Origin: Candidatus Hodarchaeota archaeon
GTDB lineage: Archaea; Asgardarchaeota; Heimdallarchaeia; Hodarchaeales; Hodarchaeaceae
Direction of reading: 5' to 3'
Length of the DNA: 35,655 bases
Assembly (NCBI GenBank): GCA_016840035.1
Contig: JAEOTC010000162.1
Coordinates: forward strand, 1 to 35,655
The translations under genes were made by a program, and so were the position numbers. How positions within the stretch are numbered: position 1 is the first letter of the stretch; the number at the start of each line of letters is the position of its first letter. Positions 845 through 21,612 of the stretch are shown piece after piece. The notes beneath the pieces were generated by a model that was given only the letters and a program-made list of their open reading frames with translations, did no database searches and had not been told where the DNA came from.

Positions 845-1477
845 TTGAATAGGATAAAATTCGTAATATTTGACTTGGATGACACATTAATCCACTCTGG
901 AATAGATTACGTTGCTATTCGTGAGAAGATTTACAGATTTTTTCCCCCAAATTTTCATCTTTCCAACCTCCAGAAAACACCTATCCTCAAACTTGCATCT
1001 CAACTCAAAGTGATTGATGAACACCTGTATCTTCAAGCTAAGGAAATAATTGAGCAACATGAAGAAGAGTCAGTTGAAAGAGCAACAATTATTGAAGGAG
1101 CAGACGATTTACCTAAACTTCTTGATCAAAAGCATTTACTGAGTGCAATCTACACTAACAATACGACAAAATCAGTGAGTCTATACCTCCAAAAACCAGA
1201 ATTTATATTCTTAAAATATTTCGATTTTCTAACGAGAGAAGCAGTTTCGCATCCAAAACCTAATCCAGAAGGAATTTTAACCCTTCTCAAGAAATATAAT
1301 GTCGCGAAAGGGAACACAATCTACATTGGTGATTCATTTATTGATGCAGGAGCCGCTCAGAATGCTGGAATTAGATTTATTCTATTTAATTCAAGACGGC
1401 TTGACCTAGAAGCTTATGAAATATCACCCTTTGCAACTATTAACCGATGGTCAGAATTTATTTCACTTCTTGAATGA
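845..1477 (+). CDS. HAD-superfamily hydrolase (phosphoglycolate phosphatase-like)
   Basis: Motif I FDLDDTL, motif II YTNN, motif III PKPNPEG, motif IV YIGDSFID. Confidence 0.9.
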   Translation: MNRIKFVIFDLDDTLIHSGIDYVAIREKIYRFFPPNFHLSNLQKTPILKLASQLKVIDEHLYLQAKEIIEQHEEESVERATIIEGADDLPKLLDQKHLLSAIYTNNTTKSVSLYLQKPEFIFLKYFDFLTREAVSHPKPNPEGILTLLKKYNVAKGNTIYIGDSFIDAGAAQNAGIRFILFNSRRLDLEAYEISPFATINRWSEFISLLE

Positions 1478-2202
1478 ACTTTGAATCTATAGTATGGAGA
1501 GTACTAGCAATGGGAAAATCTGACATAAAAACTCAATTAGCGACCTTATTTCAATTATCAGTACAAAATTCATCATTTAACTCCGCACTTCATCCAAAAT
1601 CATGTGGGGGAGATGATGAATTCAAATATTTAGCATTGTATGGGGATGCTATTCTTAACCTTCTTCTGCTTGATTTGATGTCACGCAATGATTTAAGGGA
1701 TTCTGGCCAGATTACAGAGGCCCTTCAGACGTTTCATAACGAAGAGACATTATATCAACTTGCTAAGGAACTAAAGATTGATGAGATCATGCGAGCTCAA
1801 CATCAAAATGTAAATCTTACAAAAAATGACTTAAAAGAAAGTGTGGAGGCTCTGCTAGGTGCTACCTATCTCAATCAGGGATTGAATCCATGTAAAGATG
1901 TGACAAAGACTCTTGTCCAACTAGCACTTTCAAAAAATCTTTTCAATTCAAATCCTAAGGGTGTTCTTCAGGTATTTTTTCAAAAAAAGAATTTACCAAT
2001 TCCTAAATATATCTCAAAACGCGTAGGGGGCCCTGACCATCAACAAATATTTCAGACTACAATAATAGGAGATTATAAAGGAAGAAAATACATGATTCAA
2101 AGTGATCTTCTTCCTAGCAAGAAGAACGCTGAAAAAAATGCTGCTGAAAAGTTTTTAATTGAATTGGGAGAGGAGGAGTTAATGAAAAACTCCTTCTTTT
2201 AA
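1474..2202 (+). CDS. rnc: Ribonuclease III family protein with C-terminal dsRNA-binding domain
   Basis: Signature variant KYLALYGDAILNL and second catalytic helix LKESVEALLGATYL. dsRBD: NPKGVLQVFFQKKNLPIPKY...GGPDHQQIF...SKKNAEKNAAEKFL. ATGA overlap with the HAD gene; an alternative start ATG 1510 has GGAG upstream. Confidence 0.85.
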   Translation: MNFESIVWRVLAMGKSDIKTQLATLFQLSVQNSSFNSALHPKSCGGDDEFKYLALYGDAILNLLLLDLMSRNDLRDSGQITEALQTFHNEETLYQLAKELKIDEIMRAQHQNVNLTKNDLKESVEALLGATYLNQGLNPCKDVTKTLVQLALSKNLFNSNPKGVLQVFFQKKNLPIPKYISKRVGGPDHQQIFQTTIIGDYKGRKYMIQSDLLPSKKNAEKNAAEKFLIELGEEELMKNSFF

Positions 2203-2341: not shown

Positions 2342-2563
2342 GTGTATATTATGCGGAAATTTGCCTTTCAAGAACTAGCGTATGCCATTGTGGTCGCAAG
2401 TAGTTACGGGCTGTTGTTAGGCTTACTTTATAACACATCTTCTGATTACTGGATCTTTTTTGTTTGGATCCTCGTCATTACCTTACATTTTGCTGGTATC
2501 GTGTTAATTGAATATCTTGAGACTAACAAACGTGAAAAACAAAAACTGGATGACAATAATTAG
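2342..2563 (+). CDS. Small two-TM membrane protein, unknown function
   Basis: Two hydrophobic segments (AYAIVVASSYGLLLGLLY; YWIFFVWILVITLHFAGIVLI) and a charged tail; the ORF fills the intergenic gap. Likely start ATG 2351. Confidence 0.6.
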   Translation: MYIMRKFAFQELAYAIVVASSYGLLLGLLYNTSSDYWIFFVWILVITLHFAGIVLIEYLETNKREKQKLDDNN

Positions 2564-2589: not shown

Positions 2590-4689
2590 CTACCTTAATA
2601 GCCTAAGGGAGTTAAAGATAGTAAGAAGTGTGACGCCTACATCACCAAAGACTGCTACCCACATAGATGCTAAACCGACTGTTCCCAGACCAATAAATAG
2701 AGCCTTAATTCCAAGCGCCAATAAGATATTTTGTTTAGCGATTTTATTTGTGTCTCCAGCAATTGATATTGCATCATTCAATCGGTTAGGATTATCGTCC
2801 ATAATAACTAAATCAGCTGCTTCAATTGATGCATCTGAACCGATAGCTCCCATTGCGACACCAATATCCGCACGAGCTATGACAGGAGCATCGTTCATTC
2901 CATCTCCAATAAACATTACCGTCCCACCATTTTCTTCTGCCTTGTGAAGATACTTTTCCAAAATCTCTATTTTATTTAGTGGCATCAAACTCGAGTAAAT
3001 GTTTTCTTGCTTGATACCTAATTCTCCACCAACTCGTTCAGCAATATTCTTTGTATCACCAGTCAATAAGCCTATATGAGGAATGTTCCTTTTCTCTAGG
3101 TATTTTATCGCATCAAAAGCTGTAGTTTTAATCTTATCATCAATGATAATGTGCCCAATATAAACATCATTGAGTACTACATAAACCGCAGTCTCATCAG
3201 TAATACAGGCGGAATGCGGACATTCAATTTCGTGAACCATCTTGTCGTTTCCCACAACGATCGAATCACCAGACTTAGTCTTCATCTTAATTCCTAGAGC
3301 TGGTAATTCTTCGTACTCCTTAACTTGGGAAAGATCCACAGGTTCACCATAGGCTTCAAGAATTGATTTAGCGATTGGGTGATTTGAATGAGCTTCAGCA
3401 AGGGCAGCGTACATAATTACTTCTTGAGGAGAATAATTCTCATCAGGTACAACCATAACAACTTTAAATTTACCTTCAGTTAAAGTCCCAGTTTTATCAA
3501 AGAGAACTGCTGTTACTTCAGTTAATGAATCAATTACATTTGCTCCCTTCAATAACACCCCACTTCGAGAGCTTTTTCCAATTCCTGCGAAATACACAAG
3601 AGGTATTGACACAACTAATGCACAAGGACAGGAAATTACAAGAACTACAAGTGCACGATAAATCCATATTTCCATAGGTTCAGCTAAAAGTAAGGAAGGG
3701 ATTATTGCGATTGCAATTGCTAATATAAGCACAAATGGAGTATAATAACGTGCAAATCTAGTGATGAATACTTCTTTTTCAGATTTATTCTGAGTGGCAT
3801 TCTCTACAACATCAAGAATTCGACTGACTGTAGATTCAGAATGATCTACTGTGACTTTTATCTTAATGCTAGCACTAGTAATTGCTCCTGATAATACTTC
3901 GTCGCCTTTAACAATCGGAACAGGTCTTGATTCGCCAGTCAAAGCTGATAAATCAAGATTAGCATGTGAGGAAACTAGAATTCCATCAATAGGAACACGT
4001 TCTCCCGGTTTTACTAGAATTATATCTCCAGGTGTGATATCCTCAACTGCTACTGTTGTTATATCATCCATAGAGACTAAATGAGCAATATCTGGTCGAA
4101 TATCCAATAATTCACTGATGGATTTACGTGATTTATTAACTGCCCTGGACTGTAAATATTCCCCGATTGAATAAAAAACCATTACAGCCGCAGCTTCTGG
4201 AAGTTCATCGATAAGAATAGCGCCCAAAGTAGCTATAGCCATTAAGAAATATTCATTAGCTATGTCAAAATTTTGAAGTCTAAGAATCGCTTTACGTAAA
4301 ACATGAAAACCGGATACCAGATATGAACTGAAAAGTACCAAATGTCCTCCTAGAACAACTAACGGTGGAAAAGAAAAGCTTGTTAACAAAATTCCAAAAA
4401 ATAAGAGGATTATTGAAATGGAGATCCGTATAAGTAGGAAGTTTTCACGTTTTTTAGCACTCGAGAAGTCTTGCGATGTTTTCTCTGGAATTGCTATCGC
4501 TCCAGGTTCAATTCGTGAGATAATTGAATTAATCTCCGATATGTTATCCGACCCGATTTGTAGACGACGGGTTGTAAAGTTTAGTTTTACTGAAGAATAG
4601 CCTTGTTGTTTCAATGAGGATTCGATTTTTAATGCACAATCAGCACATGAAAGCCCTTGAAGTAGAAAATTATGCTTTTCCTGTGCCAT
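2590..4689 (-). CDS. cadA: Heavy-metal translocating P1B-2 type ATPase (Zn/Cd/Pb; CadA/ZntA)
   Basis: N-terminal HMA domain GLSCADC, TGES, SCPCAL, DKTGT, SNHP, GDGMNDAP, and the Asp in the last TM (AVFGDVG) typical of P1B-2. AAGGTGA RBS upstream. Confidence 0.93.
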   Translation of the reverse strand: MAQEKHNFLLQGLSCADCALKIESSLKQQGYSSVKLNFTTRRLQIGSDNISEINSIISRIEPGAIAIPEKTSQDFSSAKKRENFLLIRISISIILLFFGILLTSFSFPPLVVLGGHLVLFSSYLVSGFHVLRKAILRLQNFDIANEYFLMAIATLGAILIDELPEAAAVMVFYSIGEYLQSRAVNKSRKSISELLDIRPDIAHLVSMDDITTVAVEDITPGDIILVKPGERVPIDGILVSSHANLDLSALTGESRPVPIVKGDEVLSGAITSASIKIKVTVDHSESTVSRILDVVENATQNKSEKEVFITRFARYYTPFVLILAIAIAIIPSLLLAEPMEIWIYRALVVLVISCPCALVVSIPLVYFAGIGKSSRSGVLLKGANVIDSLTEVTAVLFDKTGTLTEGKFKVVMVVPDENYSPQEVIMYAALAEAHSNHPIAKSILEAYGEPVDLSQVKEYEELPALGIKMKTKSGDSIVVGNDKMVHEIECPHSACITDETAVYVVLNDVYIGHIIIDDKIKTTAFDAIKYLEKRNIPHIGLLTGDTKNIAERVGGELGIKQENIYSSLMPLNKIEILEKYLHKAEENGGTVMFIGDGMNDAPVIARADIGVAMGAIGSDASIEAADLVIMDDNPNRLNDAISIAGDTNKIAKQNILLALGIKALFIGLGTVGLASMWVAVFGDVGVTLLTIFNSLRLLR

Positions 4690-4704
4690 GAGATCATCAC
4701 CTTC

Positions 4705-5061
4705 TTAGCTAATATCTGCTTCTTTCATATGTGCTAATGTTTGAGCGAGGATGGGATGAAGATGCTCTTTTTCCAAAGTGTAGAAAATCTGTTTTCCATC
4801 ACGTCGGGATTTAACTAAACGATGTTGTTTTAAATATCTCAATTGGTGGGAGATCGCGGATTGTTTAGCATTCAAGGTAGTACTGATATCACAAACACAT
4901 AATTCTACTTCTGATAGTGCAAGAAGAATTTTAATCCGAGTTTCACCAGCTAATAGCTTGAAAAAACCTGCTACTTCGGTGGGATTACTATCCTCAATCG
5001 TTTTTTTAGCATGTGCCACGTTATCTGGATGAATTACAAATTCTTCACAATCATTTGACAT
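4705..5061 (-). CDS. cadC: ArsR/SmtB-family metalloregulatory repressor (CadC/SmtB-like)
   Basis: ELCVCDI motif, SAISHQLRYL helix, wing RRDGKQIFY, C-terminal H..AHMKE. Lies directly upstream of the P1B ATPase. Confidence 0.9.
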   Translation of the reverse strand: MSNDCEEFVIHPDNVAHAKKTIEDSNPTEVAGFFKLLAGETRIKILLALSEVELCVCDISTTLNAKQSAISHQLRYLKQHRLVKSRRDGKQIFYTLEKEHLHPILAQTLAHMKEADIS

Positions 5062-5117
5062 TTGGATTCGAACCTAGGAATTTCTCACTTTATTTTTGAA
5101 ATAAGATCTAAATAAAT

Positions 5118-5139
5118 CATATGAACGATCATTCATATG
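5118..5139. promoter_or_regulatory. ArsR/SmtB-type operator inverted repeat
   Basis: CATATGAA-cgatca-TTCATATG is a perfect 8-6-8 inverted repeat with the TGAA-N6-TTCA core of SmtB/CzrA/CadC operators, 56 bp upstream of the repressor start. It abuts a TATA-like TTTATTTA (minus strand, 5116-5109). Confidence 0.8.
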
Positions 5140-5319
5140 TGTTTGGTTTCACAAATTCGCAGTAGAACATCAGTTTGTTTGCGAAAATTTAACTGGTCAA
5201 TTAAGTACGCTAGAAATGATTAGGTATATTTTCTACTCTACGATTTTCGGGGATAGTGTATTAAAATTAATAAAGGAATTGTCAATAGTGAATTAACTTG
5301 AAATTAATGGTGAATTACT

Positions 5320-6723
5320 ATGTCTAAACTTGTTCTTTCCGAAGCCACAAAAATAATGGAGATCATCGATGCTTATCCATTCCTGACTGAGGTTTTAGTA
5401 GAATTAGATCCAATTTTACGACGTTTCAAAAATCCAATTCTGCGTAAAACTGTCGGTAGAAAAGCTACTCTAACCGATGTCTCTGATATGATTAACAAGG
5501 ACTTAGATGAGGTGATTTCGTTCTTTTCCAAAAAAATTGAAGATTCTACTAACGCTAAAGTAGAACGAAGTGTCGGATCAGAAAGAAAAAGTGGATGGGA
5601 AGATGAACATACACGAAAGCGTGAAATGTTAAAGGCATTAGTACTCGAGCTACATGAGGGTGGGGAATTACCAGCATTGAAAACCAGATTTAATGAAATA
5701 TTGGGTGATGTTGAAGCAACAGATATTGCTTCGATGGAACAGGAGTTAATTGACTCGGGAGAACTAACTGTTGACCAAATAACTCTTCTATGTGATTTAC
5801 ATGTCGGGATATTTGAAGACACTCTAAGTGAACATCAAAAACCACAGGCTGTTCCTGGACATCCCATTCATACTTATATGGCAGAAAATTCAAAGGCGAA
5901 GAATTTAATTACTAAACTCCGAGAAAAACCATCTCCTGAGTTAATCAAGGAATTAGCAAAAATTGAAATTCATTACACACGTCTAGAAAATCAATTCTTT
6001 CCCATGTTGGAAAAAAAAGACTTTTCTGGACCCTCACAAGTAATGTGGGCAAAACATGATGAAACAAGGCAGTTGCTGAAGCAAGGTGAAGATGTCGATA
6101 TAGATGAGCTTACGGCTCAAGTTGAAGACATGATCTTCAAAGAAGAGACAATTCTTTTTCCAACAAGTTTGGAATTATTAACTACGCTTGATTGGCAAAC
6201 AGTAAAGCATGGTGAAGAAGAAATCGGTTTTGCTTGGGTTACTCCTGGAGATGAGTGGACACCTCTTACTCCAGAAATCATTCATCAAGCGTCAAAACTT
6301 GAAAAGACTACAGATTCTTTATCTTTGAACACAGGCAAATTATCACTCGAACAGATAGATTTAATGCTTACTCACCTTCCGATTGAAATTTCCTATATTA
6401 ATACTCAAGATGAGGTTCTTTACTATTCTGGAACAAAGGAACGAATTTTTCCTCGTAGTCCTGGTGTTATCGGGAGGAAGGTACAAAAATGCCACCCTCC
6501 AAAAAGTGTAGATAAAGTAGAGGAGATAATTAGTGCCTTTAGAGCAGGACATAAAGATCAGGCAGAATTTTGGATTACAATGGAAGGTAAATTTCTACAT
6601 ATCCGCTATTTTGCTGTTAGGAATGATGAAGGAATTTATCAGGGAACTCTTGAAGTTATGCAAGATGTAACCTCGATTCGCGCTCTTGAAGGAGAAAGAA
6701 GACTAGTTAATTGGGAAAAATAA
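5320..6723 (+). CDS. DUF1858/DUF438 + hemerythrin-like + PAS_10 domain protein
   Basis: N-terminal F..NPILRKTVGRKATL, LHEG, LCDLHVGIF, GHPIHTYMAEN, HYTRLENQFFP, VMWAKHDE, MIFKEETILFP. C-terminal PAS: RIFPRSPGVIGRKVQKCHPPKS...YFAVR...GTLEVMQDVT. GGTGA RBS at 5309-5313. Confidence 0.88.
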   Translation: MSKLVLSEATKIMEIIDAYPFLTEVLVELDPILRRFKNPILRKTVGRKATLTDVSDMINKDLDEVISFFSKKIEDSTNAKVERSVGSERKSGWEDEHTRKREMLKALVLELHEGGELPALKTRFNEILGDVEATDIASMEQELIDSGELTVDQITLLCDLHVGIFEDTLSEHQKPQAVPGHPIHTYMAENSKAKNLITKLREKPSPELIKELAKIEIHYTRLENQFFPMLEKKDFSGPSQVMWAKHDETRQLLKQGEDVDIDELTAQVEDMIFKEETILFPTSLELLTTLDWQTVKHGEEEIGFAWVTPGDEWTPLTPEIIHQASKLEKTTDSLSLNTGKLSLEQIDLMLTHLPIEISYINTQDEVLYYSGTKERIFPRSPGVIGRKVQKCHPPKSVDKVEEIISAFRAGHKDQAEFWITMEGKFLHIRYFAVRNDEGIYQGTLEVMQDVTSIRALEGERRLVNWEK

Positions 6724-20673: not shown

Positions 20674-21612
20674 TTAGACCAGCTCTTCAAGCTGTAAACT
20701 AAAAGCTAGGACTCTACTTAGTAATGCTGGGAGCTGCTCTCGTTTTTCTTTTAACCTATCTTTATGAAAACCGAGAAATAACACCATTCCTGCTTCTAGA
20801 AAGTTCACAATAAAGACACGATTATTGGATTCGAACAGAATGGAGGAAGAGGTTTGATCTTTAGAATTTGCTAGATTTTTTGCTACTGCATCAAACACTT
20901 GTCTAACCTCGTTAAGAGCAATATGGTCAAAATTCACAATATTTTCAAGTTGAATTAAAGGAACTCCAGCCTTAGTAAAAATTTGAGCCATTTCTGCATC
21001 ATTATGTTGAATAAAGGTATCTACAAGTGGGACGAGAGATTCATTTACTCCATATGTCCTTCCGAATACATCTCCCATTGCATTAAAGATTGAGGACTTG
21101 AAAACAGAGGTTTCATAATATCGAACATGCAATGGAAGGTTTACTAGAAGATGATCAGAAACCGTATTACGAACTTCTTCTTTCAATTGCTCTGGAATAA
21201 GATCGGTTTTGTGTTGAAATAAGTACGCATACGCTGTGGGACTATATTCAACGAGTTTGGTTAAGGAAACATCCAAGTAGTATTTAGCTTGTTCGAGCTC
21301 CTTTACCTTAACTGAGTCTACAACAAAAATAAGTGCTTTCACACCAGTAAAGATCAGATCTGATAAGCCATCAGTAAAGCGGTCTAAAAAGGAGGTCTGT
21401 CCTCCCATATCAAAGATAACTATTTCATGACCCGCAATCATAACTTTTTTTCGCTCATAATCAATTGTAGGAAGATATTCATCCTCTTCTATTGGAATTT
21501 GACCTTTAGTCACTGCATTAATGATAGTCGTTTTTCCAGACGCTTGTAATCCTAAGATAAGGATTTTGTTGATATCTTTTTTAGCTAGATATGACAAAAT
21601 GATATTCCTCAT
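20674..21612 (-). CDS. Rag/Gtr-like small GTPase with C-terminal roadblock/longin-like domain
   Basis: G1 GLQASGKT, G2 YLPTIDY, G3 DMGGQ, LIFVVDS, Rag-type G4 HKTD, G5 ETSV, followed by an about 125-aa alpha-beta-beta-alpha-beta-beta-beta-alpha extension. Confidence 0.85.
   Translation of the reverse strand: MRNIILSYLAKKDINKILILGLQASGKTTIINAVTKGQIPIEEDEYLPTIDYERKKVMIAGHEIVIFDMGGQTSFLDRFTDGLSDLIFTGVKALIFVVDSVKVKELEQAKYYLDVSLTKLVEYSPTAYAYLFQHKTDLIPEQLKEEVRNTVSDHLLVNLPLHVRYYETSVFKSSIFNAMGDVFGRTYGVNESLVPLVDTFIQHNDAEMAQIFTKAGVPLIQLENIVNFDHIALNEVRQVFDAVAKNLANSKDQTSSSILFESNNRVFIVNFLEAGMVLFLGFHKDRLKEKREQLPALLSRVLAFSLQLEELV

Follow-up and report, generated by a model that had tools for sequence, protein, structure and literature searches.

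A conserved type of Asgard archaeal RNase III with an altered active site

The locus

The window analyzed here, a stretch of 35,655 nucleotides (nt) that makes up contig JAEOTC010000162.1 (C126) of a Candidatus Hodarchaeota archaeon genome, carries a gene (rnc) for a ribonuclease III (RNase III) protein with a double-stranded RNA (dsRNA)-binding domain (dsRBD), in which several residues of the canonical catalytic site are replaced. Judged from sequence comparison, this gene appears to represent an alternative, conserved layout of the RNase III active site that stands in for the canonical enzyme in its lineage. The longest open reading frame (ORF) of the gene encodes 242 amino acids (aa) and is the sole Pfam match to PF00636 in the whole genome. 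The features of rnc and of the gene before it are as follows.

845–1477, plus strand: haloacid dehalogenase (HAD)-IA family hydrolase gene, 210 aa, directly upstream of rnc on the same strand
1474–2202, plus strand: longest ORF of the RNase III-like gene
1496–1499, plus strand: Shine-Dalgarno-like GGAG (putative function), 10 nt before ATG 1510
1510–2202, plus strand: probable true coding sequence of the RNase III gene, 230 aa, N terminus MGKSD
1594–1614, plus strand: clade-specific motif PKSCGGD, taking the place of the H(K/R)S loop that precedes the signature
1612–1911, plus strand: RNase III catalytic domain, residues 47–146 (Pfam envelope)
1624–1647, plus strand: altered signature KYLALYGD, with E38 replaced by K51, E41 by A54, and D45 retained as D58
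1702–1704, plus strand: Ser77, the equivalent of Escherichia coli E65 and Aquifex E64 in alignments
1837–1848, plus strand: ESVE, with D114 replaced by E122 and E117 retained as E125
1954–2163, plus strand: dsRBD, residues 161–230, with a GPDH loop and a KKNAEKNAA helix

The Met equivalent to ATG 1510 is the start in three orthologous genes, which have in-frame stops upstream of it. P0002, which is 80% identical, is 230 aa long, and residues 2–14 of the 242-aa AlphaFold model have predicted local distance difference test (pLDDT) values below 50. The orthologs read GGAA at the aligned place of GGAG, likewise 10 nt before the start. A first-pass annotation, made from the sequence alone, had described rnc as translationally coupled to the HAD gene. 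The ATGA overlap of ATG 1474 with the HAD stop codon (TGA, 1475–1477) is real in the DNA, but the coupling is doubtful because of where the orthologs start and stop, and it is probably an artifact of choosing the start of the longest ORF; the HAD stop lies 32 nt from ATG 1510. Co-transcription of HAD and rnc is likely, and neither translational coupling nor a functional link of the HAD protein with RNase III is supported.

Fold and active site of the protein

Two RNase III families match above their Pfam cut-offs, Ribonucleas_3_3 (PF14622; E = 9.3e-12, 45.7 bits against a cut-off of 35, residues 47–146) and Ribonuclease_3 (PF00636; E = 6.6e-9, 36.9 bits against 27). The dsrm profile (PF00035; E = 2.4e-10, residues 161–230) aligns over positions 1–65 of 66, so the dsRBD is complete, and the domain assignment of the first-pass annotation holds throughout. 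These Pfam matches, together with Foldseek probabilities of 1.00 to 2nug and 7r97, place the protein in the RNase III superfamily, and a single RNase III domain ahead of a single dsRBD within about 220–250 aa is the architecture of class 1. The best solved relatives by sequence are the bacterial RNase III structures 3n3w, 7r97, and 1yyk (E about 1e-8), and identity to solved enzymes is about 22–24%. The AlphaFold model, built with 30 relatives (mean pLDDT 88.1), shows a helical nuclease domain and an alpha-beta-beta-beta-alpha dsRBD. Its top Foldseek match is Aquifex RNase III with dsRNA (2nug, E = 8.5e-9), and further matches include mitoribosomal mL44 (e.g., 7o9m_c, E = 2.3e-6), Drosha, and Dicer.

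The altered motifs singled out in the first-pass annotation, KYLALYGD and ESVE, can be read directly in the DNA, the second of them within KESVEAL. HMMER alignment to Aquifex RNase III (1yyk) gives E37 to K, E40 to A, and D107 to E, with D44 and E110 kept; in the E. coli numbering used from here on, the changes are E38K, E41A, and D114E, and D45 and E117 are retained, as had been claimed. To these we add a change beyond those noted earlier, Ser77 at the equivalent of E65. Only L40, G44, and D45 of the class-1 signature (ERLEFLGD, with E38, E41, and D45) are kept, and the catalytic tetrad E41, D45, D114, E117 becomes A, D, E, E, leaving three carboxylates, one of them lengthened.

Residues 13–160 are predicted to form a homodimer with an interface score (ipSAE) of 0.82, the best of three controls scoring 0.00; in calibration, 20 of 30 solved one-chain pairs attained the mark for this score, as did 1 of 23 single chains. 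The runs have 92% or more of their contacts in common, with a partner pLDDT of at least 88. The predicted interface lies on the signature helix (residues 47–81 and 137), where K51 and A54 contact S77 of the other chain. The class-1 homodimer is therefore present as a prediction, which may owe something to likeness to known structures because RNase III dimers are already solved.

A conserved family with a fixed residue pattern

A word-indexed search returned 41 proteins, among them 31 close relatives (E of 1e-27 or better) and 9 ordinary RNase III proteins (E of 1e-10 to 3e-4). Two architectures occur in the close set, a short form of about 227–242 aa and a long form of about 358–376 aa with an extra, C-terminal second dsRBD-like domain. 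Both are present in the window's genome, where the long paralogue is 39% identical to the short protein and has the same altered motifs.

G000:C184:45933–47036 (L014:7934–9037), plus strand: long paralogue, about 367 aa from its likely start

The C-terminal 90 residues of the long paralogue hold a second alpha-beta-beta-beta-alpha module (pLDDT about 95), undetected by Pfam, and the second dsRBD-like domain corresponds to residues 276–352 of the model. Genes for RmuC-like, zinc-ribbon membrane, and rhomboid-like proteins lie beside it, with an XPD/DinG-type helicase gene on the opposite strand. In one congener (L006/L021, G004:C135) a long-type gene stops at a TAA after the first dsRBD, leaving a 228-aa frame, which may be a short derivative of natural origin or else a gene cut short; nearby is a PIN-domain gene.

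The alignment used as the clade profile (A2) contains 30 sequences, including the window's own protein, with a mean column identity of 42%. Only 21 of its columns are invariant, and K51, A54, D58, E122, and E125 are among them. In the PKSCGG loop P41, G45, and G46 are invariant and K42, S43, and C44 are at least 90% conserved. The window protein scores 342 bits against A2, where clade members score at least 164, a value that is partly circular because the protein is itself an A2 row; independent support for its membership comes from the tree (below) and from the motifs PKSCGG, [F/Y]KxLAxxGD, and KExxEAL, with no Glu at E65. Searching 1.84 billion representative sequences with the profile gave 10,659 matches at E of 1e-3 or less and only 44 at 1e-30 or less. 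The top sequence with canonical motifs in that search (131 bits) was P0082, a 2391-aa metagenome protein with a canonical RNase III domain and dsRBD embedded at residues 1207–1392.

Alignment of proteins to the clade profile gave 58 clade rows and 87 canonical rows, with the following residues at the positions of interest.

E38: clade K 44, E 10, D 3, R 1; canonical E 49, Q 10, K 4, N 2, D 2, unaligned 20
E41: clade A 58; canonical E 87
D45: clade D 58; canonical D 87
E65: clade T 23, S 20, K 9, E none; canonical E 67 (of 87)
D114: clade E 58; canonical D 51, N 24
E117: clade E 58; canonical E 87
Q165 (Q170 in the window protein): clade Q 45; canonical Q 73

Glu at position 114 accompanies Ala at 41 in all 61 rows that have the Ala, as against 2 of 86 rows with Glu at 41.

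A quick maximum-likelihood tree of 155 rows (LG+G4, unrooted, eukaryotic sequences not included) was computed after dropping 18 rows with less than 75% of columns filled and proteins outside the range of 190–700 aa. The altered-type sequences form one 59-row group, the window protein inside it, with a support of 99 in the Shimodaira–Hasegawa-like approximate likelihood ratio test (SH-aLRT). Four degenerate RNase III-like rows (P0079, P0088, P0156, P0159) lack D45 and E117; of these, P0079 nests in the clade yet has lost its otherwise fixed residues. The sister of the clade is the pair P0086/P0096 (support 94), which keeps E41. P0086 has 380 aa and the long architecture, aligns end to end with the long forms, and finds its nearest genome matches in Asgard archaea (41–44% identity).

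On the free tree the A41/E114 state needs five changes, and P0126, P0139, and P0151, which carry Ala for E41 and Glu for D114, lack Glu at E65, and in two of the three cases show Lys for E38, fall among canonical sequences. P0139 has no close match in the 400 Asgard genomes scanned, so the A41/E114 state also exists outside the sampled Asgard archaea. A single clade for all 30 A41/E114 rows of a 76-row subset was not rejected by the approximately unbiased (AU) test (p = 0.525), and the independent-pairs sign test on the E41A/D114E pairing gave p = 0.125; with these two values, we dropped a convergent or repeated origin of the state.

Distribution and host

In the profile scan of the 400 Asgard genomes, 142 match at E of 1e-5 or less. 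RNase III is thus not rare in Asgard archaea, from which rnc genes have also been published already, and the archaeal rarity assumed in the first-pass annotation does not extend to this group. The altered type accounts for 16 matches in 15 genomes, which score 164–358 bits and all have the altered motifs; the next match, below a gap at 99 bits, is canonical (NQRLETLGD or FERLEFLGD, with DLADxVEAIFG). The clade spans six families, some of them in other classes, with Promethearchaeota metagenome-assembled genomes (MAGs) as named examples, and the altered RNase III is widespread but patchy in Asgard archaea. Four of the 15 clade-bearing genomes also have a canonical-type match. Among the 22 genomes of g1, the group to which the window's genome belongs and which is counted with it, 5 genomes have the altered type alone, 12 the canonical type alone (2 of these weak or fragmentary), none both, and 5 no match; P0086, used as a canonical-type query, found only the two altered genes in the window's genome. 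As the genomes are kin and incomplete, this pattern is suggestive, although not proof, that the altered type replaces canonical RNase III among related species of g1.

The genome comprises 4.3 Mb in 293 contigs and is 87% complete with 4% contamination. Its Asgard, Hodarchaeales-group identity follows from the labels of close homologs (Candidatus Hodarchaeales, Heimdallarchaeota), from gene order shared with relatives, and from genes within the window. Scanning species-representative genomes found relatives 61–64% identical in Heimdallarchaeota B3_Heim, Hodarchaeota YT2_065, and another Heimdallarchaeota MAG, which have in common the order HAD, rnc, P-type ATPase, ArsR, and DUF438/hemerythrin. 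The window also encodes archaeal TRASH and MetOD1 regulators and, at 20674–21612 on the minus strand, a small GTPase of the Gtr1/RagA type (PF04670, E = 4.2e-27), one of the eukaryote-like signature proteins known from Asgard archaea. The archaeal host that the first-pass annotation suspected is thereby borne out, and synteny with named Heimdall and Hodarchaeota contigs rules out a bacterial contaminant contig. A recent bacterial transfer of the gene is rejected as well, because the protein belongs to the SH-aLRT 99 clade. Of 400 Asgard genomes, 15 carry this clade, and all its members with a genome placement (14 loci and the window's two genes) are Asgard. The substitutions are conserved and do not look like random decay, with Ala at E41 and Glu at D114 in every one of the 58 clade rows.

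The genome has two matches to the family of BHB (bulge–helix–bulge) splicing endonucleases, PF01974, so the usual archaeal route of rRNA and tRNA processing is present. Large-subunit rRNA is absent from this genome's assembly, and Rfam and tRNA scans of the window gave no match.

Neighboring genes

The upstream protein is a HAD hydrolase, as the first-pass annotation named it (Pfam HAD_2, E = 2e-23; NCBIfam HAD-SF-IA-v1 above cut-off). That annotation had also proposed examining whether the HAD–rnc pair is conserved. Adjacency is kept in all three close orthologous loci, but these share the entire neighborhood (P-type ATPase, ArsR, DUF438), and the adjacency is therefore plain synteny of close kin. 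The pairing is missing at the other clade loci tested (L006–L010), and all five congeners with canonical RNase III have a HAD homolog (43–46% identical) sited away from rnc; we accordingly rejected the HAD protein as a functional partner. No conserved gene partner emerged elsewhere, the annotated neighbors of 13 further clade loci being unrelated to each other.

Several further settings were observed. Next to rnc, window positions 2590–6723 hold a metal-homeostasis set whose order is conserved with the Heimdall relatives: a heavy-metal P-type ATPase (minus strand), ArsR (minus), and a DUF1858/DUF438/hemerythrin/PAS_10 protein (plus). Between rnc and the ATPase gene lies a 73-aa ORF with a hydrophobic core (2342–2563, plus strand). 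In another family (L022:2207–3633, G031:C65), the long form follows, on the same strand, a flavodoxin/4Fe-4S protein gene and, one gene further upstream, a HAD hydrolase with no detectable relation to the window HAD (tblastn, 1e-3), which is probably a coincidence. In Promethearchaeota 33X4 (JAHLWS010000077.1, L048:720–7086) a same-strand run ends with a long-form RNase III gene, after an SF1 (Upf1-like AAA_11/AAA_12) helicase of 863 aa, an unassigned 372-aa protein, and a PLD-like nuclease of 510 aa; this run could be an RNA-surveillance or defense cassette.

A Piwi search of the window's genome, 87% complete, gave no match. Among five other clade-bearing genomes searched, one has a Piwi match, which lies on a contig other than that of the clade gene, so that no Argonaute link was found in the genomes searched. 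The connection to RNA silencing that the first-pass annotation had entertained is not supported by these searches, and in sequence-profile and fold comparisons alike bacterial RNase III ranks above Drosha and Dicer.

Discussion

We consider it somewhat probable that the window protein is a homodimeric dsRNA endonuclease of the class-1 type with a remodeled metal site and a housekeeping role. The observation that drew attention to this gene stands, and its original interpretation is supported in part. Because the rebuilt metal-binding center is strictly conserved across a deep and mostly Asgard family, the protein probably functions as an enzyme whose active site is unusual, and is probably neither degenerate nor newly acquired from bacteria. 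The canonical site provides the frame for this proposal. The report on the E. coli RNase III EcEEQ structure (PMC9291653) describes four carboxylates per cleavage site, with MgA bound by E41 and E117 and MgB by D45 and E117, and D114 as no direct metal ligand. It further places E38 and E65 at the valley ends on the RNA-contacting surface, where their removal stabilizes the complex; without both, cooperative cutting of long dsRNA into 22-nt duplexes is favored. In a deep mutational scan of E. coli RNase III, D114 tolerated substitution, whereas D45 and E117 tolerated none (PMC10037077).

The homodimer would cut dsRNA with divalent metal ions in a rebuilt catalytic valley. The metal A ligand E41 is lost to Ala, and we infer that its lengthened neighbor, E122 (D114E), takes over that ligand role, with the D45 and E117 ligands staying as in the canonical enzyme. 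At the valley ends, Lys stands for the acidic E38 and Ser for E65, and a tighter grip on dsRNA would be expected. Remodeling rather than decay is indicated because the indispensable ligands are kept, Ala alone occurs at E41, and Glu always occurs at D114. Structured RNA and sense/antisense RNA would be its housekeeping substrates, as for the canonical enzyme, a role made probable by the altered type standing in for canonical RNase III in related species. There is no apparent need for it in BHB-type processing of rRNA and tRNA, for which the genome has its own endonuclease.

Several points weigh against this proposal. The match to the TIGR02191 equivalog runs end to end but reaches 84.5 bits against a cut-off of 166.25, so that the protein departs from strict Rnc in score as well as in signature and catalytic tetrad. 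In E. coli, E41 tolerates no substitution in vivo (PMC10037077), and E41A has weak activity and low dsRNA binding in vitro (PMC8708148). One event may underlie the E41A/D114E pairing, which is not shown to be recurrent. Finally, the either/or pattern in g1 is weak evidence because its genomes are kin and thus not independent, and a canonical rnc could be among the unassembled part of this genome, given its completeness.

The E. coli data on E41 and the charge changes lend some weight to a catalytically impaired or dead RNase III-like dimer that binds, masks, chaperones, or hands over dsRNA, like mL44 or binding-only mutants. Such a protein would account for the loss of one of four catalytic carboxylates at a position where E. 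coli accepts no change, for the intact dsRBD, for the mL44 mitoribosome chains among the Foldseek matches, and for K38 and S/T65, which take negative charge off the RNA-contacting surface, a change by which the E. coli complex is stabilized. We nevertheless regard this main rival as rather unlikely. D45, E117, and an acidic residue at 114 are kept in every one of the 58 clade rows over deep divergence, with Ala alone fixed at E41; the truly degenerate rows, by comparison, have lost D45 and E117, and the altered type replaces the canonical enzyme in related species.

The loss of the valley-end charges also brings to mind an engineered E. coli variant, and the clade might be its natural counterpart, a "bacterial Dicer" with an A-D-E-E site making cooperative "inside-out" cuts with products of about 22 nt instead of about 11 nt. 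With Lys for E38 and Ser, Thr, or Lys for E65, its dimers would keep a tight hold on long dsRNA. We think this improbable. If it were true, it would mean pre-eukaryotic, Argonaute-independent dicing in the archaeal group closest to eukaryotes, with the long form contributing a further dsRBD-like module in the manner of Dicer partner proteins.

An active heterodimer of the window protein with the long paralogue (G000:C184), an asymmetric Dicer-like pair of RNase III domains, is very unlikely. A short and a long form do coexist in one genome, and the dimer helix is conserved between them, but among the genomes scanned two clade-type matches occur in just 1 of the 15 that bear the clade (the window's), the two genes lie on different contigs, and neither paralogue complements the other because both carry the identical residue pattern. 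Least credible of all is a two-gene module in which the upstream HAD phosphatase would, for example, dephosphorylate RNA ends after cleavage, for the same-strand proximity (32 nt, or an ATGA overlap if ATG 1474 were used) is offset by the synteny and the congener genomes described above and by the resemblance of the HAD protein to small-molecule phosphatases of the IA subfamily.

To our knowledge, E41 is regarded as an essential metal ligand in every RNase III domain, those of Dicer and Drosha included. A deep natural clade with Ala at E41, Glu at D114, and the valley-end carboxylates lost would show a second workable active-site design, and it supplies ready-made natural mutants for probing the two-metal mechanism. 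The textbook absence of RNase III from archaea is corrected in that about a third of the scanned Asgard genomes carry one, and there are at least two Asgard types, one apparently substituting for the other between related species. With respect to how RNA silencing began, the outcome is sobering, because the gene shows neither an Argonaute link nor a special likeness to Dicer or Drosha.

Comparison with known systems

Reviews describe RNase III as absent from archaea or as sporadic or accidental there (PMC8708148, PMC3867540). Asgard rnc appears in print, as far as we found, only as an Argonaute neighbor: rnc-asAgo-helicase clusters place Asgard proteins with an RNase III domain and dsRBD beside Argonaute (Bastiaanssen et al., bioRxiv 10.1101/2023.12.14.571608 / Nat Commun 2024, PMC11217426), and the preprint's text contains neither "Heimdall" nor "Hodarchae". 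We found no description of the A41/E114 clade or its residue pattern in the literature on Asgard RNase III, although the bioRxiv supplements could hold one. The Ago-linked proteins likewise combine an RNase III domain with a dsRBD; they differ in setting, as the window's genome lacks Piwi matches and no Piwi adjoins the clade genes in the five other genomes searched.

When ranked by sequence profile, the window protein is closest to bacterial RNase III structures (5.4e-19 to 1.2e-11), followed by Drosha (1.5e-9), plant Dicer-like proteins (9.4e-5 at best), and Mini-III 2gsl (0.55). Dicer and Drosha, with two RNase III domains per chain plus helicase, PAZ, or other modules, are set apart from this single-domain protein of 242 aa. 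Mini-III enzymes (class 4; PDB 2GSL, 1U61) presumably have Ala at the E41 position, and the likeness proposed in the first-pass annotation extends to that one residue; they have no dsRBD, the window protein has one, and the profile match to 2gsl is marginal, so that it falls outside Mini-III. Dicer and Drosha are classes 2–3 in one scheme (PMC5141509) and III–IV in another (PMC8708148).

The mL44-type noncatalytic proteins share the RNase III-like fold and dsRBD with the window protein, and the partners in the trypanosome editosome are described as noncatalytic RNase III-like proteins too (PMC9508840). The clade differs from the mL44 type in strictly keeping D45, E114, and E117 (58 of 58 rows). 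The engineered E. coli enzymes E38A and E38A/E65A/Q165A ("bacterial Dicer", PDB 7R97; PMC9291653) have likewise lost the valley-end charges of E38 and E65. Unlike them, the clade carries natural changes, has Lys and not Ala at E38, keeps Q165, and is altered at E41 as well.

The canonical RNase III proteins of other Heimdall-group genomes have the same size, domains, and host group as the window protein but keep E41, E65, and D114 and score 93–100 bits against the clade profile, as opposed to the clade members' minimum given above. The long form of the clade shares FKxLAxxGD, KExxEAL, and PKSCGG with the window protein, which has no second dsRBD-like domain. Class-1 Rnc (Aquifex aeolicus 2NUG/1YYK, E. 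coli 7R97, Campylobacter jejuni 3N3W) has the same domains and fold in about 230 aa, and its members cleave dsRNA in a Mg2+-dependent way that leaves 3' overhangs of 2 nt. The differences lie in E38 to K, E41 to A, E65 to S, D114 to E, and the PKSCGG loop before the signature; the equivalents of D45, E117, and Q165 are kept, and a dimer through the signature helix is predicted as in class 1. The window protein is built like a class-1 RNase III and would work like one.

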